Source of the DNA: Campylobacterota bacterium
GTDB taxonomy: Bacteria; Campylobacterota; Campylobacteria; Campylobacterales; Thiovulaceae
Assembly (NCBI GenBank): GCA_030152305.1
Contig: JASKOM010000001.1
Span: 201,174 to 265,173, forward strand
Direction of reading: 5' to 3'
Length of the DNA stretch: 64,000 nucleotides
Shown here: piece by piece, positions 1-64,000 of the stretch
Layout: every line of letters starts with the position of its first letter
Numbering within the stretch: the first letter of the stretch is position 1
The notes under the pieces: generated by a model
Seen by the model: the letters and a program-made list of their open reading frames with translations, nothing else
Told to the model about the DNA's origin: nothing
Databases searched by the model: none
Translations under genes and position numbers: made by a program

Positions 1-1092
1 AAGTGCCTGATCGCTAAATATTAAATTTGCACCATCAAGTTCAAAAAGCTTTTGATATTGCTTAACAAGTGCATTTTTCGGTTGAGTTAATATATGTTTC
101 ATGTCTTCGATCGATATTTGATTAAGAACACCGATAACTGGCAAACGACCAATTAATTCTGGAATTAATCCAAATTTGATGAGGTCATCTGGTTCAACCA
201 TTCCAAGAACTTCGTTTTTCTCAACTTTTGTTTTTTTCGCTTGAGTAAAACCCATGCTATTTCCAGTTAATTTTTTCTCGATAATCGAATCGATACCGTC
301 AAAAGCACCGCCACAAATAAATAAAATATCATTTGTATTAACTTGAATAAATTCTTGATGTGGATGTTTGCGACCACCTTGAGGCGGAACATTTACGATA
401 CTGCCTTCGATAATTTTTAATAAAGCTTGTTGAACACCTTCGCCAGAAACATCTCGAGTAATACTTCGATTTTCACTAAGACGAGCGATTTTATCGATTT
501 CGTCAATAAAAACGATTCCTTTTTCAGCTAATTTAACATCACCGTTTGCTGATTGCAAAAGTCGAACAAGAATATTTTCGACATCTTCGCCAACATAACC
601 AGCTTCAGTTAAACTTGTTGCATCAGTAATTGCAATTGGAACATTAAGAGTTCTTGCGATTGTTTGAGCTAATAAAGTTTTGCCTGAACCAGTTGGACCA
701 AGAAGAAGAACATTTGATTTTTGAAGTTCAATTTCACTATTTTTATCAGATCGTTGCATTAATCTTTTATAATGATTATAAACAGCAACAGATAATATTT
801 TTTTTGCATTTTCTTGACCAACAACATATTGATCAAGAATAGTTTTAATTTCTCGTGGAGTTTGAATTTTCAAACCATCGTAACTATGCTCATGTCCGAC
901 TTTGTTTCGTCTTTTATCTTGAGCATTTTTAAATTCAGGAGTGATATTTCCAACGGCTTCAGTCGAAAATAGATCATAAATTTGATAAGAACAATCTCGA
1001 CATATTTTTCCGTTTTCACCAAGAATAAATGGATTATCTTGTGTTTCTTCTACACCGCAGAAATCACATCTGTCGTCTCTTTTTTTTGCCAT
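1..1092 (-). CDS. clpX: ATP-dependent Clp protease ATP-binding subunit ClpX (3' end of the gene runs off the left edge)
   Basis: Not in the ORF track because no stop lies inside the window. My minus-strand translation from the ATG at 1092-1090 gives [13 protein letters not shown]...CRDC (N-terminal zinc CxxC pairs), Walker [11 protein letters not shown], Walker [10 protein letters not shown] and [10 protein letters not shown]. Confidence 0.9.
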
Positions 1093-1164
1093 TTAAAATT
1101 TCCTTATAAATTAATTATTTCTAAAATTTTGAGATCATAGCAAAAAAGAGAGACTAGTCAAAAG

Positions 1165-1653
1165 TTATTCATTTAATTTTTCGGTTTCAACACCAACTTT
1201 ATTTAAAAAATCTAAACCGTCATCACGATATCGTTCGTTATAAACAACTCGTTTGATACCTGATTGAGCGATAATTTTTGAACATTGTTTGCATGGTGAA
1301 TGAGTTAAATACAAAGTGCAACCTTCAGTCGAGATTCCTCTTTTTGCTGAAAAAGATATTATATTTTGTTCAGCATGTAAAACAAAATCAGAAGTAATTA
1401 AACTTTCTGTTATTTCATGTGAATTACAAATTTGACAAATATGAGTTTCAACAATACTTTTATGATTACAATTTTTACAAATCCAAAAATGATCTTCGCA
1501 TCTATTTTCGGCTCCGCTAATAGTGCCGTTATAACCCGTAACTAAAATGCGACCATCTTGAGATAAAACAGCACCAACTTTTAATCTTTTGCAATAAGAT
1601 TCTTCAGCCCAAATCTTAGCCGTAGCCATCATGACACGATCATATTTTTTCAT
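1165..1653 (-). CDS. deoxycytidylate (dCMP)/cytidine deaminase family protein
   Basis: 162 aa. Has the zinc-deaminase motifs HAEQN and PCKQC, plus GYNG upstream and an extra CxxC...CxxC segment. Confidence 0.8.
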   Translation of the reverse strand: MKKYDRVMMATAKIWAEESYCKRLKVGAVLSQDGRILVTGYNGTISGAENRCEDHFWICKNCNHKSIVETHICQICNSHEITESLITSDFVLHAEQNIISFSAKRGISTEGCTLYLTHSPCKQCSKIIAQSGIKRVVYNERYRDDGLDFLNKVGVETEKLNE

Positions 1654-1666
1654 ATTAAAACTTTTT

Positions 1667-2944
1667 TTAAAAATAATTAGTTAGCGATAATAAAACGATT
1701 AATAAAACTGGCGGAGTAATTATTAACCCAAATTTCGAATATTCCCAGAAAGTGATTTTTACACCTTTTCGTTCAAGAACATGAAGCCATAACAAAGTTG
1801 CAAGAGATCCAAACGGTGTCATTTTTGGACCTAAATTACAACCGATAATATTTGCATAAGCTAAATTTAAATAATCTGTATTAGTTAATACTATATCGCC
1901 TAAAGCTATATCCATAATCATAACTGTTGGCAAATTATTCATAATTGCACTTAAAAATGCTGATAAAAATCCTGTGCCAATGATTGCCAAATTATTATCA
2001 ATTTCGATTAATTTAATGATAATATTTTTTATTTCTTCAGTTAAACCTGCATTTTTTAAACCATAAACAACAATATATAAACCGATACTAAACCAGACAA
2101 TTTGCCACGGAGCTGTTTTTATCGTGAGCATAAATTTTGCAACTTTCAAATAAGAAGCAATGCCTAAAAAAATAATTCCACCTGATAAAGCAAATAACGA
2201 AATCGGTAAATTAAATTCATCGCCAATAAAATATAAAATTAATAAAATAGCTAAAAATATCCAACTCCAATAAAATAACTTTTTATTTTTTAGAACCTCA
2301 TCGGGATTTTTTAATAAATTAATATCGATGAGGTCTGGAATATCTCGCCATAAAATTAATAATAAAAATATTAACGAAGCAATGACACTTACAAAAAACG
2401 GAAAAGTCATATCAATTAAATATTCTAAAAAGCCAATATCAAAATATTCAGCCGTAATAATATTAGTTAAATTCGAAAAAACAAATGGCAACGAAGCCGA
2501 ATCGCTTATAAAACCACCAGCCAATAAAAAAGCAACAATCGTTTTGAAATTTAAATTTAATATTCGCATTTTTGAAAGCAAAATTGGAGTTAAAATTAAA
2601 ACTGCTCCATCATTTGCAAAAAGTGCTGAAACGATTGAACCTAAAATTATCGTATAAACGAACATTAATTTACCGTTGCCTTTTGATAATTTTGCCATTT
2701 TAATAGCTAACCATTCAAAAAAGCCAATTTCATCAAAAACCATTGATAAAATTATTATTCCAATTAATGTTAAAGTTGAATCCCAAACGATATTTGTTAC
2801 ATCGATCATGTCATTAAACGAAACAGTTCCGACTAAAAACGAGATAACAGCTCCAATAATTGCTGAAGTCCCAATTTGAATATTATACGGTCTCCAAATA
2901 ATCGCTACAAGAGTAACGACAAAAATAGAAAAAGGCAATAACAT
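1667..2944 (-). CDS. arsB: arsenical pump membrane protein ArsB (ArsB/NhaD permease family)
   Basis: 425-aa polytopic membrane protein. Long collinear matches to E. coli ArsB as I remember it: FANDGAVLILTPI, APWQIVWFSIGLYIVVYGLKNAGLTE, GTGFLSAFLSAIMNNLPTV, IGCNLGPKMTPFGSLATLLWLHVL. Confidence 0.85.
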   Translation of the reverse strand: MLLPFSIFVVTLVAIIWRPYNIQIGTSAIIGAVISFLVGTVSFNDMIDVTNIVWDSTLTLIGIIILSMVFDEIGFFEWLAIKMAKLSKGNGKLMFVYTIILGSIVSALFANDGAVLILTPILLSKMRILNLNFKTIVAFLLAGGFISDSASLPFVFSNLTNIITAEYFDIGFLEYLIDMTFPFFVSVIASLIFLLLILWRDIPDLIDINLLKNPDEVLKNKKLFYWSWIFLAILLILYFIGDEFNLPISLFALSGGIIFLGIASYLKVAKFMLTIKTAPWQIVWFSIGLYIVVYGLKNAGLTEEIKNIIIKLIEIDNNLAIIGTGFLSAFLSAIMNNLPTVMIMDIALGDIVLTNTDYLNLAYANIIGCNLGPKMTPFGSLATLLWLHVLERKGVKITFWEYSKFGLIITPPVLLIVLLSLTNYF

Positions 2945-4063: not shown

Positions 4064-4214
4064 GATAAATCCTACATATTTTTATTTTATGAATTAAGCG
4101 AATTTTATCAAGATAAATCACAACGATAACGAGACAGTTTGATTATTAATAAAAGTTTTTTTATGCAACCTCATCATACTCTCGGAAACGGTCAGCAACC
4201 ATTCCCTGCAAATT

Positions 4215-4946
4215 TTACATGATCGTTTTTATCTTCCACTTGATTTGATTATATTTACCAACGATCGCAATTCCAAAATCACGACCAGATGAGGTCATCT
4301 TCCAAATGCCATTTTCTCGAACTTGAAAACCTTTGTTTGCCAACATCAAATTAATCTCGACCGCTGATTTATTTATCATTTTGCCTAATTCAGTTGGTAA
4401 AAAGAATTGTGAATCGAGATCGATCTTGAAAGTTTTGAGAGGTGAAGTTCCAAATTGTTGGAGCATGATTTTGTCAAAACGAAATAGAGTTGTCTGTTTT
4501 CGTGTTTCTAAATTTTCAATAAAACCTAACAGCTTGTTTGAATAAATTTCATAATCGTTAAGTTCATTTGTCAGTTTTAGAAAGTCATGATTTTGTGAAG
4601 TTTGTTGTTTTTTAAACTGTTTTTCAACATTAATAAAATATTTTCTCACAGCTCGACCAATTGGATTATTTTCAATCATTGCTAATTCTTTCGCAACATC
4701 AATCGTTACAAGACAATCTCGATATTCAGCATAACCATTTTGTCCATTTTCTCGATGAGTTACTAAACTTTTAGTATGCCAAATAAAGTCTTCGTTTTCA
4801 ATAAACTCAAATTTATTAATTCGATTATTTATCCAGTCGTTAAAACGACTTTTTATATTTAAATGTTCGTGTAATTTTCTAGCTGAAACAAAATTGATTT
4901 TTTCGTTAGAAATCTGATATTCTATAATTTCGAAATTCAAAGGCAA
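4215..4946 (-). CDS. phage-type antirepressor (AntA/Bro-like N-terminal domain plus KilAC-like C-terminal domain)
   Basis: 243 aa. The N-terminus (VSARKLHEHLNIKSRFNDWINNRI...ENEDF) has the AntA/BRO pattern. The C-terminal roughly 60 aa are duplicated at 5388-5572. Confidence 0.65.
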   Translation of the reverse strand: MPLNFEIIEYQISNEKINFVSARKLHEHLNIKSRFNDWINNRINKFEFIENEDFIWHTKSLVTHRENGQNGYAEYRDCLVTIDVAKELAMIENNPIGRAVRKYFINVEKQFKKQQTSQNHDFLKLTNELNDYEIYSNKLLGFIENLETRKQTTLFRFDKIMLQQFGTSPLKTFKIDLDSQFFLPTELGKMINKSAVEINLMLANKGFQVRENGIWKMTSSGRDFGIAIVGKYNQIKWKIKTIM

Positions 4947-5288: not shown

Positions 5289-5326
5289 ATATTAAATTTG
5301 GATTACTATAAGTTTAGTAACCCATT

Positions 5327-5387: not shown

Positions 5388-5572
5388 TTACATGATCGTT
5401 TTTATCTTCCACTTAATCTGGTGATATTTACCAACGATCGCAATTCCAAATTCGCGACCCGATGAGGTCATTTTCCAAATGCCATTTTCTCGAATTTGAT
5501 AACCACGATTTGCCAACATCAAATTAATCTCGACTGGCGATTTATTGATCATTCCTCCAAGTTCGGTAAGTT
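5388..5572 (-). pseudogene. orphan 3' fragment of an antirepressor gene (KilAC-like tail)
   Basis: My translation is LTELGGMINKSPVEINLMLANRGYQIRENGIWKMTSSGREFGIAIVGKYHQIKWKIKTIM*. It is collinear with the last roughly 62 codons of 4215-4946 and has no N-terminal part. The 34 nt after the stop are also duplicated. Confidence 0.7.
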
Positions 5573-5975: not shown

Positions 5976-8966
5976 ATGACTTCCGAAGAAATTAATAGAA
6001 AATTAGCTGATCCGAAACGGCTTTTGACTGATATATATTTTGAATTACAAGAAGCCTTTGAAAATAAATATGGCGAAAATGTTCTTATTTTTCTTGAATT
6101 GGGTAGCTTTTTTGAAATTTATTCGGTTGATAATGAACAGCTCAAAATTGGCAAAGCCCGTGAAGTTGCTGAAATGTTAAATATTCAGCTAACACGAAAA
6201 AATAAAAGTATCGCCGAAAATTCGATAAAAAATCCATTTATGGCTGGTGTTCCAACTGTTTCGTTTGAACGACATTTAAATAGAATTATTTCAGAAGCAA
6301 AATATACGATTGTTCTTATTCGTCAGCGAGGCGAACCGCCTCAAGTTGTTAGATATTTGCATCAAATTATTTCACCCGGAACAAATTTTGATTATTTGTC
6401 TGATAGTAACGAAAATTTTATTGTTGCTCTTTCGATTGATGCACATAAAAATAGCTATTCGATCGGTTATTCGGCTATTGATGTTTCAACTGGTGTTTCG
6501 TTAGTTTCTGAAATTCATAGCAGTATCGAAGATCAAAATTATGCTCTCGATGAGGTTTTTAATTTGTTGCATATTTATAAAAGTTCAGAAATCGTGTTGA
6601 ATTTTTTATCGAAATTTATAAATCAGCAAAAAATTATCGAATATCTCGAAGTGAAAAAAAATTATCATTATTCTGTTCATTCTGGACGAATAAAAATAGA
6701 TTTTCAAAATGAACTTTTTAAACGAGTTTTTAATACAAGTTCGTTTTTATCGCCAATCGAAGAGTTAAATCTTGAACATTTGCCACTTGCTTCTGAATCG
6801 TTGGCAATTTTGATCGAATTTATTTTTCAGCATGATTATAAAATCGTTGAAAGACTTGATCGTCCGCAAATTCTCGAAAATCGTAATCGATTATATTTAG
6901 GCAATAATGCAATTGAACAGTTAGATATTATAAAAAATATAAATGACAACGGTTTATTATCGTTGATTGATAAAAGTTCAACGGCAATGGGCAAAAGATT
7001 ATTAAAAGCTAGACTTTTAAATCCTGTTTCTGATTCGAAAGAGATTCGAGATCGTTTCGCTTTGAATGATCGAGTTTATCCGTTTTTGTCAGAAATCGAA
7101 TCGAATTTAAAAAAAATATATGATCTTGAGCGAATTTCTCGACGAATAAAATTAAAAAAATTACATCCGTTTGAAATAAATTATTTACATATTTCACTTT
7201 TGGCAGTTGTCGAAATTTCAAAACTTGTCAAAAAGAACCTCATCGAAGATTTTCATTTTTCAGAAAGTGAAATTCGTGGCATGATCGATTTAATCGAAAA
7301 TTATTTCGAACTTTCGATAACTCAAAAATATAATATTGACAAAATCGAAGAGAATCTTTTTTTGCATGGTGTCAGTCGCGAAGTTGATCGAATTGAAAAT
7401 GATATTTCAGGTTATATAAAAACTTTGAATTTAATCGTCGAGAAAATAGCAAGTTTATTAAAAACTAAAACGAATAAAAGCGACGGCGAAATGGTCAATT
7501 TGGGTTCTCTCGAAAAAGAAGGCTATTATATTTCGCTAACGGCAAATCGTTTTAATTTAATCGAACGAGATTTTCTCGAAGAAAAAATAATAATAGGCAG
7601 TCGAGAATATTTTTTTAGAGATTTTAAAATAAGAAAATTATCGAACAATGTAAAAATCACAGCTGAAATTATCGATAAATTTTCTGAACAGATTTCAGCT
7701 TCTCAAACTAAATTAGCTTCGTTAATATATGACGAATTTTTAATTCAGTTACATGAAATAGATCAAAAATATTCGATAATTCTAGAAAAAATCGCATATT
7801 TTATTGCCAAAATTGATATTGCAGTTTCAAATGGCAAAGTAAAAAATAGTTTAAAATATTCTCAACCTGAAATTATCGATGTTGATTCTGGTGATAATTT
7901 TTTACAAATTGCAAAATTAAGACATCCGTTAATTGAACGACGAGAATCAGCGGGAATTTTTGTTCCGAATGATATTTTTTTAGGCAAGAAAAAATATTTA
8001 ACAGATCTTGATAATTTTGATAAAAATGTTATCGATGCTACTGAAGATGAACAAATAAATGGCATTTTATTATATGGCATAAATTCGAGTGGCAAATCGT
8101 CATTAATGAAAAGTATCGGAATTGCGGTTATTCTTGCTCAAGGCGGTTTTCCAGTTCCAGCTGAAAGCATGAAATTTTCGTTATTCAAATCGCTTTTTAC
8201 TCGAATTGTTTCTCGAGATAATTTGCAAAAAGGACTTTCAAGTTTTGCCGTCGAAATGGTCGAATTAAAAAATATTTTTAATCGAGCAGGTGAAAAAACT
8301 ATCGTTTTAGGTGATGAGATTTCTCACGGAACTGAAACACTTTCGGGAGTTGCAATCGTTTCAAGTGCAATTATGCGACTTGTCGAAAATAAAACACTTT
8401 TTGTTTTTGCTACACATTTGCATCAATTAACGAAAATCGATGAGGTGCAAAATTTAACGACAGTTGTCAATTTGCATTTAGCCGTAAAATATGATGAAAG
8501 TAGTGATAAATTAATATTTAATCGAAAATTGCAAATTGGAAGCGGAAGTAGTATTTACGGGCTTGAATTCGCTCGTTCGTTGCATATGGATGAAAAGTTT
8601 TTAAAAAATGCGAATTCGATTCGAAAAAAATTAGCCGACGAATATAGCGACATCGAAATGTTAATGCAAAAAAAACAGAGCAAATATAACAGCAATTTAT
8701 ATTTAACGAAATGTATTATTTGTGGCGAAAAAGTAGATGATGTTCATCATATTGCAGAAAAAAAATTATCTCGAAACGGTTTTATTGGTCATTTTTCTAA
8801 AAATCACAAACATAATCTTATTCCACTTTGCAAAAATCATCATATGGCAATTCACGATAAAAAAATTGATGTCAAAGGTTTTATGATGACATCATCAGGT
8901 TTAGAATTGCATTATGAAGATGAGTCTGAACCTGAAACAGAAGAAAAGATAGAAAATAGAAACTAA
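5976..8966 (+). CDS. MutS-family ATPase with C-terminal HNH nuclease (MutS7-like)
   Basis: 996 aa. N-terminal MutS domain-I-like region (FMAGVPTVSFERHLNRII), core/clamp region, Walker A GINSSGKSS, Walker B LGDEISHGTE, and a C-terminal HNH (CIICGEKVDDVHHI...NLIPLCKNHHMAIH). Confidence 0.85.
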   Translation: MTSEEINRKLADPKRLLTDIYFELQEAFENKYGENVLIFLELGSFFEIYSVDNEQLKIGKAREVAEMLNIQLTRKNKSIAENSIKNPFMAGVPTVSFERHLNRIISEAKYTIVLIRQRGEPPQVVRYLHQIISPGTNFDYLSDSNENFIVALSIDAHKNSYSIGYSAIDVSTGVSLVSEIHSSIEDQNYALDEVFNLLHIYKSSEIVLNFLSKFINQQKIIEYLEVKKNYHYSVHSGRIKIDFQNELFKRVFNTSSFLSPIEELNLEHLPLASESLAILIEFIFQHDYKIVERLDRPQILENRNRLYLGNNAIEQLDIIKNINDNGLLSLIDKSSTAMGKRLLKARLLNPVSDSKEIRDRFALNDRVYPFLSEIESNLKKIYDLERISRRIKLKKLHPFEINYLHISLLAVVEISKLVKKNLIEDFHFSESEIRGMIDLIENYFELSITQKYNIDKIEENLFLHGVSREVDRIENDISGYIKTLNLIVEKIASLLKTKTNKSDGEMVNLGSLEKEGYYISLTANRFNLIERDFLEEKIIIGSREYFFRDFKIRKLSNNVKITAEIIDKFSEQISASQTKLASLIYDEFLIQLHEIDQKYSIILEKIAYFIAKIDIAVSNGKVKNSLKYSQPEIIDVDSGDNFLQIAKLRHPLIERRESAGIFVPNDIFLGKKKYLTDLDNFDKNVIDATEDEQINGILLYGINSSGKSSLMKSIGIAVILAQGGFPVPAESMKFSLFKSLFTRIVSRDNLQKGLSSFAVEMVELKNIFNRAGEKTIVLGDEISHGTETLSGVAIVSSAIMRLVENKTLFVFATHLHQLTKIDEVQNLTTVVNLHLAVKYDESSDKLIFNRKLQIGSGSSIYGLEFARSLHMDEKFLKNANSIRKKLADEYSDIEMLMQKKQSKYNSNLYLTKCIICGEKVDDVHHIAEKKLSRNGFIGHFSKNHKHNLIPLCKNHHMAIHDKKIDVKGFMMTSSGLELHYEDESEPETEEKIENRN

Positions 8967-9055: not shown

Positions 9056-11944
9056 ATGATACACAAAAAGATTCTCGAGCGGGAATTAAAAAATATAAAT
9101 GAAATTGAAGTTAGCAGTGCTTTTGCAGGTTTGGAAAAGTTTAAAAACTCAATCGAAAATATCAAAAAAGCAAAAGAAGAAAGTTATCAATACGGTTTTC
9201 TCGAAGACTTTTTTGTAAAAAGCTTAGGCTATATATTAAATCCGTCGCCAAATTATAATTTGACAACTGAATTTAAAAACGAAAGCAACAATAAAAAAGC
9301 TGACGGTTCGATTTTGATAAATGGCAAACCGATCGCTGTTATCGAATTAAAATCAGTTGCAACGAAATCAATGGATAAAATCGTTGATCAAGCATTTAGT
9401 TATAAAAACAACCATCCAAGTTGTCATTATGTTATAACTTCTAATTTTGAAAAAATGCGGTTTTATATCGAATATTCAAATGAATTTATAGAATTTGATT
9501 TGTTTAACTTGCGGTTCGAAGATTTCAAAAAGCTTTATTTGTTGGTTGGGCGAAATTCGATTTTGAACGATTTGCCGAAAAAATGGCGAGACGAATCGAA
9601 ATATAATCAGGTGAATATAGCGAACGAGTTTTATAAAAAATTCTCGAATTTGCGAACCAGACTTTTTGATGAAATTGCAAATATAAATAAAATCGAAAAA
9701 TTAGATGCTCTTTCGCTTTCTCAAAAGTTGCTCGATAGAGCTATTTTTATATTTTTCGCTGGTGATCGAGGTTTAATCGATTCGAAAACGGTTGATGATT
9801 TTATCGCGAGATTTAAAAATGATCTCGAAGGTCGCGATTTATATCATTTTGTCAAGCTTTTATTCAAAGCGATTGATATTGGAAATGCAAAAATTAGAAT
9901 TCCTCCATATAATGGTGGCTTGTTTGCAAATGACGAAATTCTCGATTCGTTGAAAATTAGCGATTCGCTTTTGTTGGAAATATTGAATTTATCGAGTTAC
10001 GATTTTGAAAGTGATATCGATGTTAATATTTTAGGGCATATTTTTGAAAATAGCCTTGATGAACTTGAGAAAATTCGCGAAGATTTAATCGGTGGAAAAT
10101 TTGATTCGAATCGTTCAAAACGAAAACGAGACGGCATTTTTTATACTCCTAATTATATAACTGAATTTATAGTTGAGAATTCAGTTGGTGCAATTTGTGA
10201 AAAGCGAAAAGCTGAACTCGAATTAATTAATTTTGAAGATGCAAGTGAAGAAAAAATAAAAAGCTATTTAGATTTTTTGACAAATTTGAAAATTGTTGAT
10301 CCTGCTTGTGGTTCGGGAGCATTTTTAAATATGGCTTTTAACTATTTATTTGTTGAATATAAACATTGTTATGATATTTTAAACAATTTTGCGATGAAAA
10401 AAGGCGATTTATTTTTGAGTTCTGATTTTGATGTTTCGATTCTCGAGAATAATTTGTTTGGTGTTGATTTGAATGCTGAAGCGGTTGAAATTGCGAAATT
10501 GTCGCTTTGGTTGAAAACGGCAAAACGAAACAGAAAATTAACTGATTTGAATAAAAATATAAAAGTTGGTAATTCACTTATAAGTCATTCTGAATCTCAA
10601 ACATTAAAACAAGTTACAAAAGCTTTTGATTGGCAAAATGAATTTCCTGATATTTTTGCAAAAGGCGGTTTTGATATCGTAATCGGAAATCCGCCGTATG
10701 GTGCAAATATTGAACACGAAAAGACATTTTTTGAAATTCAATCTGGCGAAAGTGCAATTTTATTTATGCAACTTGCTCGTCAATTGTTAAAAAATAATGG
10801 AATTGCTGGTTTTATTGTTCCAAAACCTTTTCTTTATTCTTCGAGTTGGGAAGAAATTAGATCTGTTTTGAAAGAAGAAATTTCTCATATTGTTGATTGT
10901 GGCAAAGTTTGGGATGAAGTAAAATTAGAACAGGTGATATATATTTCTCATAAGTTAAATAAAATTGATAATTATAAAAATTACCAATTGGAAGAAACAA
11001 AATTTAAAGAATTATCAACAGTAAAAAAAGACCTCATCGAAAAATTTGGATTTTTTGTAAATGGAGTTAATCAGAGAGAAATAGAAATTGCTTTGAAAAT
11101 TAAAAAGCAGTTAAATAATTTGTTTGATATTTCAGCTGAATGTAGTCGTGGCGGAGCATTTCAACATGCAATCAATTCAACTGGAGAAATTCAAGTTTTA
11201 GGCGGAATTAATTTAGCAAGATATGAAATTAAAGATGTCAAAGGTTTTATTTCTTCAGATTTTGAAATTTCAAATGATTCTTTTATTAAAGCTAATTCGA
11301 TATTAGTTCAGAGAATTATTGCTCATATTCAAAATCCAACTGATCACATTAAATTGATAGGAACAATTAGCGATAACTTAAATAATATTGCCATTGTGAA
11401 TACAATTTACCAAATCACATTTGATGAAAAATATTCTAATAAATATATTCTCGCTTTACTTCATTCAAATTTAATAAATTGGTTTATTTATCGTTTTGTA
11501 TTCGCAAAAGCTATTAGAACAATGGATTTATCGAATCATGTAATAAAACGAATCCCAATTCCTGAAATTTCAGAAAATGAACAAAAACCGTTCGTCGAGC
11601 GAGTTGATAAATTGGTTGAACTTTATGCTCAACTTCAGCAAACCAAAAACGAATTTCTCGAAACTCTCGAACTCGAAAAGATTCCGCAAAAACTTGATAA
11701 TTTTGCAAAACTCGAATTTGACGAATTCATCATCGAATTATCAAAAGCGAAAAAAATAAAATTGTCTGACAAAAAATTAGAACGGGAATTTAAAAAAAGC
11801 TGGAAAAATATATTCGACGAAGATAAATCAAAAGTTCAAAACCTGCTCTCGCAAATTTCAAAAATCGAACACGAAATCGATCGTGAAGTTTATAAACTTT
11901 ATGCTTTAAACGAAGATGAAATAAAAATCATCGAGAATATATAA
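9056..11944 (+). CDS. Type IIG restriction-modification enzyme (fused PD-(D/E)xK nuclease, N6-adenine methyltransferase and specificity region)
   Basis: 962 aa. Nuclease-like DGSILINGKPIAVIELKS, methyltransferase motif I VDPACGSGAFL, motif IV GNPPYG, and a C-terminal tail (VYKLYALNEDEIKIIENI) typical of Eco57I/MmeI-like and PglX-like enzymes. Confidence 0.85.
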   Translation: MIHKKILERELKNINEIEVSSAFAGLEKFKNSIENIKKAKEESYQYGFLEDFFVKSLGYILNPSPNYNLTTEFKNESNNKKADGSILINGKPIAVIELKSVATKSMDKIVDQAFSYKNNHPSCHYVITSNFEKMRFYIEYSNEFIEFDLFNLRFEDFKKLYLLVGRNSILNDLPKKWRDESKYNQVNIANEFYKKFSNLRTRLFDEIANINKIEKLDALSLSQKLLDRAIFIFFAGDRGLIDSKTVDDFIARFKNDLEGRDLYHFVKLLFKAIDIGNAKIRIPPYNGGLFANDEILDSLKISDSLLLEILNLSSYDFESDIDVNILGHIFENSLDELEKIREDLIGGKFDSNRSKRKRDGIFYTPNYITEFIVENSVGAICEKRKAELELINFEDASEEKIKSYLDFLTNLKIVDPACGSGAFLNMAFNYLFVEYKHCYDILNNFAMKKGDLFLSSDFDVSILENNLFGVDLNAEAVEIAKLSLWLKTAKRNRKLTDLNKNIKVGNSLISHSESQTLKQVTKAFDWQNEFPDIFAKGGFDIVIGNPPYGANIEHEKTFFEIQSGESAILFMQLARQLLKNNGIAGFIVPKPFLYSSSWEEIRSVLKEEISHIVDCGKVWDEVKLEQVIYISHKLNKIDNYKNYQLEETKFKELSTVKKDLIEKFGFFVNGVNQREIEIALKIKKQLNNLFDISAECSRGGAFQHAINSTGEIQVLGGINLARYEIKDVKGFISSDFEISNDSFIKANSILVQRIIAHIQNPTDHIKLIGTISDNLNNIAIVNTIYQITFDEKYSNKYILALLHSNLINWFIYRFVFAKAIRTMDLSNHVIKRIPIPEISENEQKPFVERVDKLVELYAQLQQTKNEFLETLELEKIPQKLDNFAKLEFDEFIIELSKAKKIKLSDKKLEREFKKSWKNIFDEDKSKVQNLLSQISKIEHEIDREVYKLYALNEDEIKIIENI
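11631..11944 (+). repeat. copy 1 of a 314-bp direct repeat (3' end of the Type IIG gene)
   Basis: Aligns without gaps to 14265-14578 (offset 2634). About 5 mismatches in the first roughly 270 bp by hand alignment; the last roughly 45 bp are clearly diverged. Confidence 0.9.
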
Positions 11945-11963: not shown

Positions 11964-12030
11964 CTTCGATGATGTTTAGTTTTTATTAATTAAAACCTCA
12001 TCGGGGAATTTGGGATAGAATTACAGCAAA
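11964..12030. repeat. junction repeat copy a (imperfect GATGATGT/ACCTCATC hairpin plus G/A-rich tail)
   Basis: ttcgatgatgtttagtttttattaattaaaacctcatcggggaatttgggataga. Homologous to 14158-14230 and more loosely to 30731-30822. Probably the terminator of the Type IIG gene. Confidence 0.55.
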
Positions 12031-14157: not shown

Positions 14158-14230
14158 ATTCGATGAGGTCTAGTTTTTATGAAATCTCATCGAAGAGAAT
14201 TTGAGATTTGAGAGTAGCGAAGTTTTATAG
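14158..14230. repeat. junction repeat copy b (GATGAGGT / ATCTCATC hairpin plus GAGAATTTGAGATTTGAGAG tail)
   Basis: ttcgatgaggtctagtttttatgaaatctcatcgaagagaatttgagatttgagagtagcgaagtt. Homologous to copy a and to 30731-30822. Confidence 0.55.
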
Positions 14231-28381: not shown

Positions 28382-28422
28382 ACCTCATCGCAAAAAATAT
28401 TTTTAAAATTTAGTGATGAGGT
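28382..28422. terminator. inverted pair of the ACCTCATC/GATGAGGT motif forming a hairpin after panC
   Basis: tacctcatc-(N24)-gatgaggta gives 9-bp perfect arms, 18 nt after the panC stop and at the left edge of the RM cassette. Confidence 0.5.
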
Positions 28423-54265: not shown

Positions 54266-55591
54266 ATGTTAAAAAGATATTTTGAAATAGGAATAGCTAT
54301 TTATAGTTTTAGTATTTCTGGTTGCAGTAAAAAAGAGGTTCGAGATACATCTTCTATAAATATTACTGAAGTTAATGAGAGTTATAATAATAACGAATCA
54401 AACCAAAGTAACGGTGGTAATAAAGATGGAAATGTTAGTAATTCTGGAAGCAGTGGGAATAATAACAATAATAATGTTCCAAAAGTAGATAATATTTATG
54501 TAAATCCTCTTCAACCGACAGCTGAAGAAAATAGTTCTTTACCTAAATATGTCGAACCAACAGCTGAAAAATTAGAAACTTTAAACGGAAAATCCATTAA
54601 AATTATTTCTGGTGAAATATTTTCTGATTTAACACTTTCAGCTAAATACTTATGGAAAATATCAGGCGAAACAAAAATCATTGGAGCCTCTTTAATTATC
54701 GAAGCTGGAACAACTTTATATTTTAGTGATCGAAATAGCTCATTATCTATTTTAAACGGTGGAAATATTTTAGCCGTTGGTTCAAAAACTGCACCAATTA
54801 TTTTAACATCTGAATCTGATTTAAAATCAAAATTGGGTAACAGTGGTGATTGGAGCGGTTTATCTATTATAAAAAGTGAAGATTCTATTATAAAATATAT
54901 GATTATAAAATATGCTGGTTACAATCGTTCAGCTTTTGAAATTCAAGATTCAAGTTCTAATAATGTCATCGAATTTCTTGAAATTTATCGTTCTTATAAT
55001 AATGGCATTGAATTAAACGGCGGAACTGTTAATTTGCGAAATATTGCTTTTGTTCATGTCAAAGGCGATTCGTTATATATTAATGGCGGTTGGAATGGCA
55101 AAATGCAAAATATTTTAATATCTCAAGGCGACGATGCAACAAATGAATCTTCGGGCATTGAACTCGATTTTGGTTCAAATTTATTAGCAACAAATATCGA
55201 AATATTTAGCAAAAACAGTTCGGCAGGTTCTGGAATAGATTCTAAAGGTGGTTCAATTCACCTCATCAATTCGATAATCACAGGCGAACGAAAAGGTGCT
55301 TGTCTTCAATGGGAAAGTGTTGCAGGTTTAACTGGTCGAGGAGTTTTCGAAGCAAATAATTTTGGTAAATGTTCAGGCGGTTTCGTTTCACCAAGCAATT
55401 CAATTTCGATTAGCGACACATATAATAATTTTAATTCATTAGGCGACGATTTGCGAAACAGTTCAAAAGCGATAAATCCTTATTCGTTAGATAGCTGGTT
55501 TGACGAATATAATAATTTATATGTTGGTGCTTATATTATAAATAATCCATGGTTTAAAAATTGGACAATCGGTTTAGAGGATTTAGAATAA
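54266..55591 (+). CDS. lipoprotein, probable beta-helix surface protein (hypothetical)
   Basis: 441 aa. Lipobox SISGCSK, an N/S/G-rich linker, then repetitive G-x-I/L strands. Confidence 0.55.
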   Translation: MLKRYFEIGIAIYSFSISGCSKKEVRDTSSINITEVNESYNNNESNQSNGGNKDGNVSNSGSSGNNNNNNVPKVDNIYVNPLQPTAEENSSLPKYVEPTAEKLETLNGKSIKIISGEIFSDLTLSAKYLWKISGETKIIGASLIIEAGTTLYFSDRNSSLSILNGGNILAVGSKTAPIILTSESDLKSKLGNSGDWSGLSIIKSEDSIIKYMIIKYAGYNRSAFEIQDSSSNNVIEFLEIYRSYNNGIELNGGTVNLRNIAFVHVKGDSLYINGGWNGKMQNILISQGDDATNESSGIELDFGSNLLATNIEIFSKNSSAGSGIDSKGGSIHLINSIITGERKGACLQWESVAGLTGRGVFEANNFGKCSGGFVSPSNSISISDTYNNFNSLGDDLRNSSKAINPYSLDSWFDEYNNLYVGAYIINNPWFKNWTIGLEDLE

Positions 55592-56499
55592 TGACAATAA
55601 AAAAAAATTCAATCGGTGTTATCGGCGGTGGCAAATGGGGTCAAGCTCTTCAATTTGCTCTTTCTAAAAAAAATAATCAACAAGTTTTTATAAATTCAAG
55701 ACGAATTCGTGATTTACCTAATTTCGTTTCGCTTAATGAAATATTAAATTGCGAATATTTAATCGTTGCTATTTCGACAAATGCAATTAATTCATGGCTT
55801 CGAGAACAATTTATTTTTAAAGGTCAAAAAATATTAATTGCTTCAAAAGGAATCGATATCGAAAATGGTCTTTTTCCATCTCAAATTTTCGCTCAATTCG
55901 TTCCTGAATCTCATATTTCTTATCTTTCTGGTCCAAGTTTCGCCGATGAGGTCATGAATTCTCTTCCAACGGCTCTTGTCGTAAATTCTAAAAATTTAAA
56001 TTTAGCTGATGAATTTAAATGTCTATTTCCAAATTTTATAAAAATATATATATCAAATGATATTATCGGTGCTGAAATTGCAGGTGCTTATAAAAATATT
56101 CTTGCAATTGCTTCAGGAATTTGTGAAGGTTTGAATTTAGGAAATAATGCAAAAGCAAGTTTAATCGCAAGAGGTTTAGTCGAAATGGAACGATTTGGTA
56201 AAAAATTTGGAGCAACCGAAGAGACATTTTTCGGATTAAGTGGAGCAGGTGATTTATTTTTAACAGCAAATAGCACAATGTCGCGAAATTATCGTGTTGG
56301 CTTAATGTTGGCAAATGGCGAAACACTTGAAAATATTTTGTTAAAACTTGGCGAAGTCGCCGAAGGTGTTAAAAGTGTTGAAGCACTTGTTAAAATTCGC
56401 GAACAAGAAAATTTATATACTCCAATCGCTGATCAAATTTATAATATTTTATATAAAAATATGACTCCGCAAAATGCACTTTTAAATTTATTAAAATAA
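55591..56499 (+). CDS. gpsA: NAD(P)H-dependent glycerol-3-phosphate dehydrogenase
   Basis: I prefer the ATG at 55591 (MTIKKNSIGVIGGGKWGQAL) over the track start at 55561; it overlaps the previous stop as TAATG. Also LSGPSFADEV and GAGDL. Confidence 0.88.
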   Translation: MTIKKNSIGVIGGGKWGQALQFALSKKNNQQVFINSRRIRDLPNFVSLNEILNCEYLIVAISTNAINSWLREQFIFKGQKILIASKGIDIENGLFPSQIFAQFVPESHISYLSGPSFADEVMNSLPTALVVNSKNLNLADEFKCLFPNFIKIYISNDIIGAEIAGAYKNILAIASGICEGLNLGNNAKASLIARGLVEMERFGKKFGATEETFFGLSGAGDLFLTANSTMSRNYRVGLMLANGETLENILLKLGEVAEGVKSVEALVKIREQENLYTPIADQIYNILYKNMTPQNALLNLLK

Positions 56500-57519: not shown

Positions 57520-57550
57520 ACCTCATCAAAAAATAATATCTTGATGAGGT
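57520..57550. terminator. perfect 10-bp hairpin made of an ACCTCATC/GATGAGGT inverted pair, downstream of acs
   Basis: acctcatcaa-(11 nt)-ttgatgaggt lies 17 nt after the acs stop (minus strand). It is followed on the minus strand by T-rich sequence. Confidence 0.6.
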
Positions 57551-59740: not shown

Positions 59741-61693
59741 TTATTCATAATTATCTGGATTAATTTGAAAACTAAGTTTTCTTAATAATTTTTGCTGTTC
59801 GTGTTGGTTTTTGTTTTCTGGCAATAGTAATAATACAAGCTCTTCCCAAAGGTTAATTAATTTTTTTACAACATTATCTTTTATAATAATATGAAATCTA
59901 TATTTATTGTTCAATTTTTTAATATCTGCTTCACCTGAAATAAATATTTTATATTTGAACTTATTAATTATCAATGTTTCTAATTTATTTAATAAATTTT
60001 CGGCTTCTTCTTTTATTGCTGATTTAATAACGATTCTTCCAAAATTAACAAATGGCGGAAATAAACCTTGTCGTGCTTCGATTTCATATAATAAAAATTT
60101 TTCGTAATCATTTACGAAATTTTCAAAAAATTCACCAAATTTCGTATAAACAAGAACTTCACCAGCTTCTTTTCTGCCACTTCGTCCGACAAGTTGAACC
60201 AAAGTTCTCAAACTTCGTTCATAAGCTTGAAAATCAAGAAAATCAAGTGAATTATCAATATCTGAAACAATTACAAGATTTAAATCTGGAAAATCATGAC
60301 CTTTGCTCATAATTTGAGTTCCAACAAGAATATCAATTTTATTATTTTCAAATGCTTCTAATATTTCTTCAAGTTGATCTATTTTGCGAGTATTATCACC
60401 ATCAATATAAACTATATTTTTATTTGGAAATGCTTTTTTTAATATTTTCGTAACTTCAACTGTGCCGACATTTTGAAGTTTTAATTCGCCATTGCATTTT
60501 GGACAAAATTTAGGAACATTTTCAGTTTTGCCACATCGATTACATTTTAATTTAGTATCGTCAAGATAAACTCGCATTCCTGTTGAACAACTTTTGCATT
60601 CGATTTTTAGACCACATGACAAACATGATGCATATTTAAAATTGCCTTTTACAGGAACAAACCATAAAACTTTTTTACCATTTTCAATTTCTTCACGGGC
60701 TTTTTTAAGTGCAAAATTTATAAATTTTTTCTTATCTGAAATAAATGAAATTTGGTTTCCAGCATTTAAAGATTTATCTCGTTTTAATCTAACGATGTCA
60801 AATTTAGTATAGCTAGTAATTAATGGTGTTGCACTGCCTACAATGACTTTGATATTTAATTGATTGCCAAGATAAATAGCTGATTCTCGCCCTGAAAAAA
60901 ATGTTTTTTCGTGATTTCCTAACGAATAACTTTCACTATGTTCTTCATCGATAACAATTAATTGCAAATTTTTAAATGGCAAAAATATAGTTGAAATTGT
61001 TCCAACTGCGATTTTTATTAAACCTATTTCTATTTTTGCAAGAATAGTTTCTTTACTTTCTGTATTTACCTTAGAATGCCATGGAGCAATAAGATAATTA
61101 AAATGTTTCTCAAGTCGTTTGATAGTTTGCGGAACAATATTAATTTCTGGAACTAGAAAAACAATGTCGCCATTATTTAATAAAGCATCGGCAATTAATT
61201 TTTTATAAATCCGTGTTTTTCCACTTCCTGTTTCACCAAAAAGTAAAACAGTTGTTTGTGAATTAACAATTTGATTATATGCGATTTGTTGCTGATTTGA
61301 AAGTTCTATTTCTAAATTTAAATTCTCAAAACTTGGTTCAATTCTTTTGATATCTTTAGGATGAGGTTTGATAAATTTAAATACTTGTGAAAATGGCAAA
61401 AAATAGTAATGTTTTATAAAAACAGCCGTAGAAAAATATGCTAATGGCAAAGATTCAGGGCATATAGACAGAATAATTTTTACTTTATGGATTTCTACTT
61501 CTAAATGTTCAACAGCCCGTTTTTTAAAAATTATGCCTTTAGCCTTTTGATTTTTTAAATTTACTTTAACATATGTCAAATTTGGAATATCTGTATTTGA
61601 GGCATATGTTAAATATTTATGTTGTGGTTCGACATTATTAGATGTCATTATGACATCGTAATAATAAATTATCTGTTCTTCAATTTCTTCCAT
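59741..61693 (-). CDS. priA: primosomal replication restart helicase PriA
   Basis: 650 aa. Walker A GETGSGKT, DEEH box, Cys-rich zinc region (CLSCG...CKSC...CNRCG...CPKC). Confidence 0.9.
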   Translation of the reverse strand: MEEIEEQIIYYYDVIMTSNNVEPQHKYLTYASNTDIPNLTYVKVNLKNQKAKGIIFKKRAVEHLEVEIHKVKIILSICPESLPLAYFSTAVFIKHYYFLPFSQVFKFIKPHPKDIKRIEPSFENLNLEIELSNQQQIAYNQIVNSQTTVLLFGETGSGKTRIYKKLIADALLNNGDIVFLVPEINIVPQTIKRLEKHFNYLIAPWHSKVNTESKETILAKIEIGLIKIAVGTISTIFLPFKNLQLIVIDEEHSESYSLGNHEKTFFSGRESAIYLGNQLNIKVIVGSATPLITSYTKFDIVRLKRDKSLNAGNQISFISDKKKFINFALKKAREEIENGKKVLWFVPVKGNFKYASCLSCGLKIECKSCSTGMRVYLDDTKLKCNRCGKTENVPKFCPKCNGELKLQNVGTVEVTKILKKAFPNKNIVYIDGDNTRKIDQLEEILEAFENNKIDILVGTQIMSKGHDFPDLNLVIVSDIDNSLDFLDFQAYERSLRTLVQLVGRSGRKEAGEVLVYTKFGEFFENFVNDYEKFLLYEIEARQGLFPPFVNFGRIVIKSAIKEEAENLLNKLETLIINKFKYKIFISGEADIKKLNNKYRFHIIIKDNVVKKLINLWEELVLLLLPENKNQHEQQKLLRKLSFQINPDNYE

Positions 61694-61703
61694 TTATTTT
61701 ATA

Positions 61704-63365
61704 TTAAATTTCATAACCAGAAATAGAAATATTCCATTCTCGCAAATCGCCTTTGTAACTGCTATTTGTGTCATAAACTGTAATTGTCCAAAATCCTGAA
61801 CTGTTTTCATCAAGAAATCGCACTGAACTAAACTCCCAATTATCTAATGAACCAGAAATTCCAGTTGTTAAAAGTGTCGAAACTGTGCCACTTGGCGAAG
61901 TTATATTTATTTTCAAATCTGCAATTCTGTCATGTTCAGGAATTGAAACACCAACTGTAACATGCTGAACGGCAATATTATCTTTTATATAAATTTTTTC
62001 AGATAATGATCCTAAATCTGGAATTGGTTCATAAGGTTGAGATTTACTAAAAATAACGACCTCATCGCCTAAACCTTCGAAATTTTCAGCCATTGCAACA
62101 GCATCAACTGGATTAATCACACCAAAACCGTAATAAGGCGAAAAATAGATTCCAGCTTTATTTTCACTCCATTCATATTTTTTAATTCCAGCATATGACG
62201 AATTATTTTTTTTCGTAGCTGTTTTTGCCAATATATATTTCACATCTCGATAAGTTAAATCTGGATTTGCTTCTAATATCAAAGCAACAACTCCACTTGC
62301 AACTGGTGTCGCCGATGAGGTTCCATTCATCATATCTGTGTAATTGCCGTTATAATAATCCAAAGTTGAAGATTTATTATTAAAACCGTAAAGCCAACCT
62401 GTTAAATCTGTTGTTACGATTCCTTTATATAAACTAGCATCGCCTGCGGGAGCTGTAATTAATAAATTATCTCCGTGATTCGAATAACTTGGAACTGAAC
62501 TATCATAAATAACTGCTCCGACATTAACAACATATTTACTACCGTGCAATGTCGAATAATTCGAATTTCCGTTTTCATTACCAGAAGCAAATAAATAAAT
62601 TATGCCTTTGCCATCGCGACCATAAACGATTCCTTGTTTAATACCACGAATAGAAGAAGGATCATCATATAATTCTCCTGCATTATCGCCACCCCAACTA
62701 TTGCTAGAAATATCAACATTCAAATTTCCAAGTGCATCTTCGAAATCGCTATCTTTATTTGTCGAAAAAGGATTTAATCCAACGATATCAACAAGAGGAG
62801 CAACACCGATTACACCTTCATTATTCCAACCAGAAGCCCCGATAATTCCAGCTACGGCTGTGCCATGACCAGTTGCTTCAGGTTCTAACCTTAACTGTTC
62901 TGAACTTGGCGATGGATTTTTTGAACCATCTGAATATCTCAAACTATTTGAAAAATCTATATTATTATATAAATCTGGATGATTCCATTGAACACCACTA
63001 TCGACAACAGCGATTTTTATACCTTCACCTGTATATTTTGACCAAACAGATAATAAATTCAAATAAATTAAATGCCATTGATTTTTATAAAGCGGATCAG
63101 TCGGTGTAAGATTCGAAACAGAACGAGGATAACTTTTTATTTGATCATCAGGTATTTCAAAACCTGTTTTATCGATATTAATAGGATTTTCAGGTTCAGT
63201 TGTTGTTTGATCATTATTATCAACGATGACTGGAGTTTCTTGTTGGTTTGTTAAATAAGATGACAATTCTTTATCAGTTTCGATTGTGCAACCGTTAAAT
63301 AATATCAACGAAACAACTATTGATAAATTTTTATTAAAAGCTATCTTGTGATAAATGTTCTTCAA
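61704..63365 (-). CDS. subtilisin-like (S8) serine protease lipoprotein with a C-terminal P-domain-like region
   Basis: 553 aa. Lipobox LFNGCT. Catalytic triad contexts VVDSGV, HGTAVAGII, GTSSATPVASG. C-terminal beta-sandwich (WTITVYD...EWNISISGYEI) like the proprotein-convertase P domain. Confidence 0.85.
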   Translation of the reverse strand: MKNIYHKIAFNKNLSIVVSLILFNGCTIETDKELSSYLTNQQETPVIVDNNDQTTTEPENPINIDKTGFEIPDDQIKSYPRSVSNLTPTDPLYKNQWHLIYLNLLSVWSKYTGEGIKIAVVDSGVQWNHPDLYNNIDFSNSLRYSDGSKNPSPSSEQLRLEPEATGHGTAVAGIIGASGWNNEGVIGVAPLVDIVGLNPFSTNKDSDFEDALGNLNVDISSNSWGGDNAGELYDDPSSIRGIKQGIVYGRDGKGIIYLFASGNENGNSNYSTLHGSKYVVNVGAVIYDSSVPSYSNHGDNLLITAPAGDASLYKGIVTTDLTGWLYGFNNKSSTLDYYNGNYTDMMNGTSSATPVASGVVALILEANPDLTYRDVKYILAKTATKKNNSSYAGIKKYEWSENKAGIYFSPYYGFGVINPVDAVAMAENFEGLGDEVVIFSKSQPYEPIPDLGSLSEKIYIKDNIAVQHVTVGVSIPEHDRIADLKINITSPSGTVSTLLTTGISGSLDNWEFSSVRFLDENSSGFWTITVYDTNSSYKGDLREWNISISGYEI

Positions 63366-64000
63366 ATTTAGCCTCCAAATCTTTTACCCAAATTGTGCCA
63401 TTTGCAACCTCATCGCTACCTAAAACAGCACAATATTTATAACCTTTTTTCAAAGCATTCGTAATATGAGATGCTAAACTTCGGGTTTTATATTCGATAT
63501 GAACTCGAGAAACTTCTCGTTTTTTCGAAGCTAAAATATATAATTTTTCAAGATAATTTTCATCGAGAGTTCCGAAATAATAGCCGTTTTGTTCTTTTTC
63601 AGGCAATTTAACAAGATCTAAAATTCGTTCAATTCCGAGAGCAAAACCAACCGCAGGAGTTGATTTTCCGCCGAGATATTCAACAAGACGATCATATCTT
63701 CCACCACCAGCAACAGCATTTTGACTTCCAATTTCATTAGAAACAAACTCAAAAGCAGTTCGCGAATAATAATCAAGTCCTCGAACAAGATTCGAATCGA
63801 TTTCATATTTTATATTTTTTTCGTCAAACAATCTTTTCACTCGATCAAATTCGATATCGCATTCATCACATAAACAATCTTTTATTTTTGGACTATTTAT
63901 TAATTCGTGTTTGCAACTTTCAACTTTGCAGTCAAGAGTTCTAATCGGATTTGTTTCTATTCGTCGATGACAATCAGAACATAATTTTTCTTTTTTATCA
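63334..64000 (-). CDS. hisS: histidine--tRNA ligase (5' end off the right edge)
   Basis: The frame stays open to the window end. My translation upstream of the track ORF is ...CSDCHRRIETNPIRTLDCKVESCKHELINSPKIKDCLCDECDIEFDRVKRLF..., followed by LVRGLDYY and the motif-3 region GGGRYD. Confidence 0.88.
   Translation of the reverse strand, partial: DKKEKLCSDCHRRIETNPIRTLDCKVESCKHELINSPKIKDCLCDECDIEFDRVKRLFDEKNIKYEIDSNLVRGLDYYSRTAFEFVSNEIGSQNAVAGGGRYDRLVEYLGGKSTPAVGFALGIERILDLVKLPEKEQNGYYFGTLDENYLEKLYILASKKREVSRVHIEYKTRSLASHITNALKKGYKYCAVLGSDEVANGTIWVKDLEAKFEEHLSQDSF

Follow-up and report, generated by a model that had tools for sequence, protein, structure and literature searches.

The 64-kb stretch of DNA analysed here (the window) is chromosomal DNA of Thiovulum, in which the word (C/T)GATGAGGT occurs about once per 1.5 kb, in genes and in spacers. 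The word is a lineage-specific signal under selection at the level of DNA, and it is tentatively taken, with a probability of roughly 40%, for an uptake or self-DNA mark for transformation that is probably read strand- or direction-specifically. It places a signature like DUS (DNA uptake sequence) and USS (uptake signal sequence) in a new phylum, the Campylobacterota, together with alternating orientation, separate tiling of each strand, and no halo of one-mismatch variants; the function suggested for it is drawn by analogy. The alternation, the even spacing within each orientation, and the absent one-mismatch excess are new relative to a first-pass annotation of this DNA, which had described an over-represented and strand-symmetric word.

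An exact search identified 44 copies of GATGAGGT in the window, 23 on the + strand and 21 on the - strand. The first-pass annotation had claimed at least 43 perfect copies, all at correct coordinates, and had overlooked the + copy at 61360. Dinucleotide-preserving shuffles of the window yield 0.82 copies by chance, with a maximum of 3, and an order-2 Markov model yields 0.69, in keeping with the earlier estimate of about one; both expectations are derived from 64 kb of DNA, not from a whole genome, and the enrichment amounts to about 55-65-fold. Among all k-mers of the window, which has a GC content of 29.7% (~30% by the earlier estimate), the strongest outliers at k = 7, 8, 9, and 10 are GATGAGGT together with the shorter and longer words that overlap it, and the extreme over-representation claimed before is thus upheld. 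The sub-words GATGAGG and ATGAGGT occur 45 and 46 times, against 44 full copies, which defines the core as exactly the 8-mer. Its 5' neighbour is C in 28 and T in 13 of the 44 copies, the same counts as previously given, while the 3' neighbour is almost never G and the outer flanks are AT-rich and without conservation. No longer conserved unit surrounds the core, as expected of the oligomer that had been proposed in place of a mobile repeat, and a repeat of the repetitive extragenic palindrome (REP) or miniature inverted-repeat transposable element (MITE) type, or another mobile dispersed repeat, was ruled out since the flanks are unconserved beyond one base. The sole exception is a 227-nt duplication: the copies at 4288 and 5461 lie one in each unit of a direct repeat of this length, leaving 43 independent sites. 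Rfam and tRNA searches of the window gave no match and hence no link of GATGAGGT to a structured RNA or tRNA.

Thiovulum is an uncultured giant sulfur bacterium with a very large and probably polyploid cell (PMC9938260), listed in the NCBI taxonomy under Sulfurimonadaceae, Campylobacterales. The window encodes ordinary genes, including arsB, ychF, pnp, htpG, panC, clpB, gatB, gpsA, acs, and priA. Its polynucleotide phosphorylase (PNPase) shares 81% identity with that of Candidatus Thiovulum stygium and 67% with those of Ca. T. imperiosus and of one Campylobacterales metagenome-assembled genome (MAG), which is counted among the Thiovulum genomes in the Ca. T. stygium genome paper. Identity to the PNPase of all other Campylobacterota is about 50-53%, and this comparison supports the Campylobacterota origin named earlier. 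Identical DNA was retrieved only from contigs of one public sequencing run, which extend the window to 76 kb. All statistics draw on ~220 kb of DNA from the Thiovulum group, no piece of which exceeds 76 kb. About seven further populations carry the word (PNPase identity 65-81%, ClpB identity 74-89%); the loci include Ca. T. stygium (L002), Ca. T. imperiosus (L003 and L169), a metagenome lineage (L083), three further ClpB lineages of the Thiovulum group (L165, L167, and L171), and a Thiovulum fragment (L004), with the following numbers of GATGAGGT:

L002: 11 copies in 22 kb
L003: 18 copies in 22 kb
L083: 18 copies in 22 kb
L165: 10 copies in 12.6 kb
L167: 15 copies in 22 kb
L169: 23 copies in 22 kb
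L171: 8 copies in 22.5 kb
L004: 3 copies in 2.6 kb, about 1.2 per kb

In every Thiovulum-group locus large enough to scan, GATGAGGT is the top 8-mer, and across the eight loci of at least 12 kb its density is 0.36-1.0 copies per kb. Other Campylobacterota show background levels, with 75 copies in 1.15 Mb from 77 genome loci and 47 copies in 0.97 Mb from 78 metagenome loci. A comparison with relatives, as the first-pass annotation had suggested, therefore finds the word across the Thiovulum group and at background outside it. The favoured 5' base varies by lineage: the organism of the window prefers C, and L002, L003, and L083 prefer T, a difference that resembles DUS dialects.

Over the eight independent Thiovulum-group loci, 76 copies lie on the + strand and 77 on the - strand, and every locus is balanced, extending the symmetry that had been claimed for the window. 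The balance is tighter than binomial sampling would give (lower-tail P = 0.002). Judged locus by locus, with the loci unplaced on replichores, skew was absent from all eight, and no switch was seen within the 76-kb extended region; 25 of 50 copies would have P = 0.002 under a 70% skew. The leading-strand skew that the first-pass annotation had named as evidence against its claim was accordingly not seen. Neighbouring copies tend to alternate, with 109 of 145 neighbour pairs in opposite orientation (label-permutation P < 5e-5), 36 of 52 in four loci fetched after the pattern was first noticed, and 17 of 17 in L083. Spacing is even within each orientation, the coefficient of variation (CV) being 0.55 on the + strand and 0.56 on the - strand where random placement would give about 0.89 (P < 0.0005), while all sites pooled give 0.79 against 0.95 (P = 0.008). 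Each strand is tiled with a period of about 2.9 kb. This evenness per orientation implies that + and - copies behave as different things. Together, the alternation and the per-orientation evenness indicate a polar, strand-specific signal, and the word would be polar in its reading. A difference between intervals is suggestive only: pairs pointing away from each other have a median interval of 710 bp and convergent pairs one of 1398 bp (P = 0.0009); the asymmetry is seen in four loci and not in L002, L165, L169, or L171. Most sequence sits between copies facing each other in four loci. Within L083 10400-20336, four of nine divergent-pointing pairs are 581-594 bp apart, which may be chance. Gene position as the cause of alternation was ruled out, given that sense and antisense copies both have a mean relative position of ~0.55 (hand calculation); the Thiovulum word does not follow the pattern described for USS by van Passel (PMC2346458). 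An artefact of the method was likewise ruled out by the asymmetric words of other lineages, which give 41 alternations in 78 pairs and no even spacing.

The word is also unusually all-or-none. The window holds 19 one-mismatch variants of GATGAGGT where 22 are expected; the corresponding figures are 12 and 8 for L002 and 11 and 12 for L003. The window count falls to 10 against 21 expected once GATGATGT, the only enriched variant, is removed. A functional role of GATGATGT was ruled out since GATGATGA is equally common, and its excess is explained by Asp-Asp codons. Elsewhere, the excess of one-mismatch forms is ~10-fold for an uptake sequence, 11-fold for HIP1, and 2.5-fold for E. coli Chi (Bakkali 2007, PMC1939737, Table 6). 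An all-or-none word implies either sharp recognition with strong upkeep of copies or active conversion of near-matches.

According to our own mechanical, ORF-based gene calls (56 genes, 92% coding), 19 of the 44 copies are in sense orientation, 16 antisense, and 9 intergenic, within one of the 19, 16, and 8 previously counted. Genes thus hold 80% of the copies, and the sense copies comprise 16 in an Asp-Glu-Val frame and 3 in an x-Met-Arg-x frame. The earlier remark on several reading frames and on rare GAG was confirmed: the Glu codons of the window are 92% GAA and 8% GAG, and 16 of 17 Asp-Glu-Val tripeptides are nevertheless encoded GAT-GAG-GTN, against 7% predicted by codon usage. Two further rare codons used by the word are ACC, at 4.6% for Thr, and CTC, at 4.6% for Leu. 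Asp-Glu-Val and Thr-Ser-Ser tripeptides exceed the expectation from amino-acid composition 3-4-fold, while Glu-Glu-Val is absent and Asp-Lys-Val depleted in the window. For comparison, the codon-driven word GCTGGTG is found 18 of 18 times in sense and in one single frame. Proteins bear traces of the word as well. ClpB has GFDPVYGARP in 101 of 104 other Campylobacterota homologues; at this site, which is precisely that of the word, the Thiovulum-group proteins read GFDEV in 10 of 13 cases and GFDDV in 3 of 13, and the nearly invariant proline has given way to fit the word. In PNPase, the word sits at differing, variable positions in each lineage, always with the required codons. Selection acts on the DNA and not on the protein.

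Copies turn over by point substitutions. A 10-kb block syntenic with Ca. T. stygium, at 77% nucleotide identity, has two shared sites, and the unshared sites are one or two point substitutions apart. With this turnover, site positions are kept more than neutral expectation.

Spacers make up 7.6% of the window DNA and contain 20% of the copies, a 2.7-fold enrichment (P = 0.005). Inverted pairs form hairpins in two spacers, 28382/28415 and 57520/57543, and a third close pair, 2295/2327, lies inside arsB. The intergenic inverted pairs described by the first-pass annotation are therefore real, as is the spacer enrichment; their likeness to terminators did not hold up. A classical terminator role was rejected because only these two intergenic pairs form hairpins and because a consensus scan is negative at the pairs, whose loops are too long. 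The 44 copies are as follows:

178..185 (+): antisense in a clpX-like gene (1-1092, -)
2295..2302 (-): sense, Asp-Glu-Val, arsB; left arm of the close inverted pair
2327..2334 (+): antisense in arsB; right arm of the close intragenic pair
4168..4175 (-): intergenic
4288..4295 (+): antisense, AntA-like gene; in copy 1 of the 227-nt direct repeat
5461..5468 (+): intergenic; in copy 2 of the 227-nt repeat, paralogous to 4288
6549..6556 (+): sense, Asp-Glu-Val, MutS-HNH gene
7237..7244 (-): antisense, MutS-HNH gene
8439..8446 (+): sense, Asp-Glu-Val, MutS-HNH gene
11031..11038 (-): antisense, Type IIG restriction-modification gene
11995..12002 (-): intergenic
12796..12803 (+): sense, Asp-Glu-Val, ORF 12574-13200
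14162..14169 (+): intergenic
17536..17543 (-): sense, Asp-Glu-Val, leuC-like gene; the orthologous Ca. T. stygium site is the one-off GATGAGAT
18412..18419 (+): antisense, short-chain dehydrogenase gene; position kept in Ca. T. stygium
21028..21035 (-): sense, Asp-Glu-Val, hexapeptide-repeat gene; position kept in Ca. T. stygium
22048..22055 (+): antisense, ORF 21939-22823
26723..26730 (-): antisense, htpG
27191..27198 (+): sense, Asp-Glu-Val, htpG
28382..28389 (-): intergenic, panC/dcm spacer; left arm of a hairpin-forming inverted pair
28415..28422 (+): intergenic, panC/dcm spacer; right arm of that hairpin-forming pair
28899..28906 (+): sense, Asp-Glu-Val, dcm methyltransferase gene
30764..30771 (-): intergenic
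31872..31879 (-): antisense (Thr-Ser-Ser), clpB codons 9-11; same position in L165 and L167
33150..33157 (+): sense, Asp-Glu-Val, clpB; same position in L165
34200..34207 (+): sense, clpB, at the site of GFDPVYGARP in 101/104 other Campylobacterota ClpB
34953..34960 (+): antisense, metalloprotease-like gene
35512..35519 (-): sense, Asp-Glu-Val, metalloprotease-like gene
39416..39423 (-): sense, x-Met-Arg-x frame, 1721-aa gene
40953..40960 (+): antisense, 1721-aa gene
43751..43758 (-): sense, Asp-Glu-Val, PKD-domain gene
44300..44307 (+): antisense, PKD-domain gene
46201..46208 (-): sense, Asp-Glu-Val, gatB
49395..49402 (-): sense, x-Met-Arg-x frame, ORF 49321-49686
50357..50364 (+): antisense, hybrid histidine kinase gene
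52762..52769 (-): sense, x-Met-Arg-x frame, hybrid histidine kinase gene
55260..55267 (-): antisense, ORF 54266-55591
55945..55952 (+): sense, Asp-Glu-Val, gpsA
57520..57527 (-): intergenic, just 3' of acs; left arm of a 10-bp-stem hairpin
57543..57550 (+): intergenic, just 3' of acs; right arm of that 10-bp-stem hairpin
61360..61367 (+): antisense, priA
62059..62066 (-): sense, Asp-Glu-Val, subtilase gene
62314..62321 (+): antisense (Thr-Ser-Ser), subtilase gene
63407..63414 (-): sense, Asp-Glu-Val, ORF 63334-63840

The uptake reading is favoured by the density, symmetry, spacing, dialects, and frame constraints of the word, by its spacer copies and hairpins, by its depletion from one gene cluster, and by the competence genes annotated in the host. 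The depleted cluster, of glycosyltransferase, EpsG, and asparagine synthase genes, lies next to the window, in the 7 kb to its left (L163 5382-11276), and has no copy in 5.9 kb (P = 0.017). Published annotations of Thiovulum genomes include genes for the type IV pilus, comEC, comEA, comFC/ctsW, and dprA (PMC9938260, text and supplements); none of the competence machinery genes falls within the window, and a secretin gene adjoins clpB in L165. Under this reading, the type IV pilus, ComEA, and ComEC machinery would preferentially bind and import fragments that bear the word, and alleles gaining a word would be over-transmitted between cells, a form of molecular drive with DNA uptake as the presumed selective agent. 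The word would thereby be written into spacers and into those genes whose protein tolerates the change. Since each orientation is evenly tiled on its own, reading of the signal is probably confined to one strand or one direction, such that a + copy would be no substitute for a - copy.

Much of the Pasteurellaceae USS (AAGTGCGGT) is mirrored in the Thiovulum word: it is a 9-mer at about 0.7-0.8 per kb, divided equally between the strands and spaced with significant evenness, occurring within genes as well as between them, in part as inverted pairs downstream of genes, limited to tolerated tripeptide frames in which it reshapes proteins, and family-wide with dialects. For H. influenzae, the equal strand partition and significantly even spacing are stated in a passage of PMC2238722 that cites Karlin 1996. 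The Neisseriaceae DUS (GCCGTCTGAA), whose receptor is ComP, is likewise hyper-abundant, strand-symmetric, and clade-wide, varies in dialect at its 5' edge, forms terminator-like hairpins from inverted pairs, and occurs in hosts with type IV pilus genes. In contrast to the Thiovulum word, the DUS, a 10-12-mer surrounded by a mismatch halo, lies mostly between genes or at gene ends, and the USS has an extended AT-rich flank consensus where the Thiovulum word prefers one flanking base. Alternation and per-orientation evenness have not been described for the USS, and its uptake bias is proven in another phylum, whereas the Thiovulum word is known here from sequence alone. The DUS/USS pattern recognised in the first-pass annotation thus stands in density, strand symmetry, and clade-wide presence and fails in the absent one-mismatch halo and the alternating orientation. 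The resemblance is real, and the functional label is one that we infer.

Several observations weigh against an uptake mark. The one-mismatch variants show no excess in the window, L002, or L003, unlike the ~10-fold excess for DUS and USS, and the orientation of the USS had no effect in published uptake tests (PMC1939737). Neither alternation in 109 of 145 pairs nor a CV of 0.55 per orientation, lower than the 0.79 overall, is predicted by a receptor indifferent to the orientation of the double-stranded DNA it binds; a Chi-like signal predicts these two features more directly than a plain receptor-binding tag would. Competence genes are also widespread among Campylobacterota without this motif, and a putative island at 4.2-14.6 kb has the normal motif density, with 9 copies in 10.4 kb. 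The role in uptake, moreover, would be assigned by analogy in an uncultured organism (PMC9938260).

The main rival, possible though doubtful, holds that 5'-GATGAGGT-3' on one strand switches a helicase-nuclease of the AddAB/RecBCD type from degradation to RecA loading, as Chi does. Two-ended break repair, or recombination among the many chromosome copies of a giant cell, needs a correctly oriented site on either side of a break, for which reason the orientations would tile independently; equal numbers, alternation, and independent even spacing at ~2.9 kb per orientation are all predicted. The written strand is G- and purine-rich, as are the Chi sequences of E. coli, B. subtilis, S. aureus, and L. 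lactis, and the word shares with Chi its length of eight, its polarity (as read here), its enrichment in the chromosomal core, and a few-kb spacing per orientation. The annotation of Thiovulum counts a RecB/AddA-family gene as core (PMC9938260 supplements). The conservation of site positions above neutral expectation, with turnover, would also suit such a signal, as would the location of most sequence between copies facing each other in four loci. The failure of the interval-length asymmetry to recur in L165, L169, or L171 speaks against it, as does the balance of all eight loci, since every characterised Chi sequence known to us is skewed towards the leading strand. The ~60-fold enrichment far exceeds that of E. 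coli Chi (about 6.7-fold), close hairpin-forming pairs in spacers are not expected, and the one-mismatch halo of ~2.5-fold known for Chi (PMC1939737) has no counterpart around GATGAGGT. Strand skew likewise separates the word from KOPS and AIMS, in which it is strong and switches at origin and terminus. If the word is Chi-like without replication skew, it would provide a first handle on AddAB control in Campylobacterota and bear on break repair in giant polyploid bacteria. It is rather improbable, and worth stating, that the word is neither uptake tag nor classical Chi but a new chromosome-wide polar signal, recognised as a perfect match only, tiling each strand at ~3 kb in alternation, and read by a tracking enzyme or repair system of giant cells. 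A possible role would then be the choice of strand or direction in recombination between chromosome copies, and the other words found in Campylobacterota would be signs of a wider, undescribed phenomenon in the phylum.

An organising or tracking site, such as that of a nucleoid protein, an SMC loader or barrier, or a strand-discrimination system for repair, would need regular opposed sites. Regular spacing with alternation, the strong maintenance of perfect copies without a halo, and the very large, probably polyploid host cell (PMC9938260) are consistent with it; it has no known candidate protein, the data point nowhere specifically in its direction, and the known KOPS, matS, and parS sites are either replichore-skewed or few, which makes it unlikely. 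A HIP1-like word, equal to or containing the target of a conserved DNA methyltransferase and perfected by sequence-directed mismatch correction, conceivably through MutS-HNH, is quite unlikely. HIP1 (GCGATCGC, cyanobacteria) resembles the word in being an 8-mer at about 1 per kb throughout genes and in being clade-wide, with alternatives in some lineages. One-mismatch forms at or below background (10 against 21 expected without GATGATGT) are what a converting process would give, and the window encodes MutS-HNH beside a Type IIG methyltransferase-nuclease, plus a Dcm/HpaII pair. The unrelated words elsewhere in Campylobacterota include palindromes with restriction-site cores (CTTACATGTAAG, TTTGGCCAAA) and are as patchy as restriction-modification specificities. 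However, HIP1 is palindromic and linked to cognate methyltransferases, and its one-mismatch halo is 11-fold (PMC1939737), whereas GATGAGGT is asymmetric with ordered orientation, and the window methyltransferases are not linked to it. Repair of the very-short-patch type fixes one specific mismatch instead of all eight positions and predicts neither alternation nor even spacing. A role of the Type IIG enzyme as writer of the motif is conceivable but unsupported: its gene lies in an island non-syntenic with Ca. T. stygium, and the motif is clade-wide. The last alternative, that the word has no DNA-level function and is a codon or peptide by-product or a fragment of a dispersed mobile repeat, is refuted. 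The shared Asp-Glu-Val frame of 16 copies and the two copies within the 227-nt duplication would fit it; set against these are copies in both orientations, five frames, and spacers, the rare GAG, ACC, and CTC codons, the unconserved flanks, and the contrast with GCTGGTG, which is 100% sense in one frame.

Self-recognition in transformation has another form in the same phylum. In work from 2017 by Beauchamp and colleagues, Campylobacter jejuni transformation reportedly discriminates DNA by CtsM methylation at RAATTY, again a short motif marking self DNA. The CtsM mark consists of methylation, and the 6-mer that bears it is common without being hyper-enriched, whereas the Thiovulum 8- to 9-mer is itself enriched. 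Neisseriaceae and Pasteurellaceae are described as the only families known to have such enriched motifs (2025 paper, PMC12616744). The literature searched held no paper linking uptake sequences with Thiovulum, Sulfurimonas, or Campylobacterota, as the first-pass annotation had presumed; the letters of GATGAGGT were met in primers only, and the motif goes unmentioned in the genome paper on Ca. T. stygium. With a third independent case, from another phylum, it would become possible to test whether such signatures evolve repeatedly by molecular drive, what receptor reads them in a lineage with relatives that rely on other self-recognition (Campylobacter) or on none that is known (Helicobacter), and whether orientation matters. 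Either way, the word is a practical marker for recognising and binning Thiovulum DNA in metagenomes and for spotting foreign islands.

Other Campylobacterota, mostly Sulfurimonas-like MAGs, have hyper-abundant and unrelated words of their own, which reach ~0.5-1.5 per kb and lack conserved flanks, namely CTTACATGTAAG, TCCACATGCCA, CTGCGTGAG, AAACGCAG, TTTGGCCAAA, AAACGGCG, and ACACGCAA. Their carrier loci group as L012, L019, L040, L042, and L161; L018, L020, L048, and L111; L022, L033, and L126; L027, L080, L097, L121, and L015; L078 and L081; L066; and L141. These words are patchy over the PNPase tree, show neither alternation nor even spacing, and no literature report on them was found. Such lineage-specific words suggest that the phenomenon is widespread and has been overlooked.

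The segment at ~4200-14600 looks like an island. It encodes an AntA-like antirepressor, MutS-HNH, a Type IIG enzyme, and an ImmA/IrrE peptidase, and is non-syntenic with Ca. T. stygium, synteny beginning at 14678; a public short-read contig breaks at 4238. The 227-nt direct repeat (4180-4406 and 5353-5579, 85% identity) duplicates the 3' end of the AntA-like gene and has the motif at the same relative position in each copy. The gene at 5976-8966 (+) encodes a 996-aa MutS with all MutS domains and a C-terminal HNH/DUF968 nuclease domain, which we take to resemble the MutS7 type of epsilonproteobacteria, giant viruses, and octocoral mitochondria. Directly 3' of it, 9056-11944 (+) encodes a 962-aa Type IIG (MmeI/Eco57I-like) restriction-modification enzyme. 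The glycosyltransferase cluster to the left of the window, which it equals in GC content, may have been acquired recently. At 28455-30572, a Dcm-type cytosine methyltransferase gene is followed by two ORFs with HpaII restriction-enzyme domains, and the HpaII-type endonuclease appears split into pieces of 119 and 218 aa. The window has 8 copies of the palindrome TCTCGAGA, which contains the XhoI site, where ~1 per strand is expected; the palindrome is rare in the other Thiovulum-group loci.

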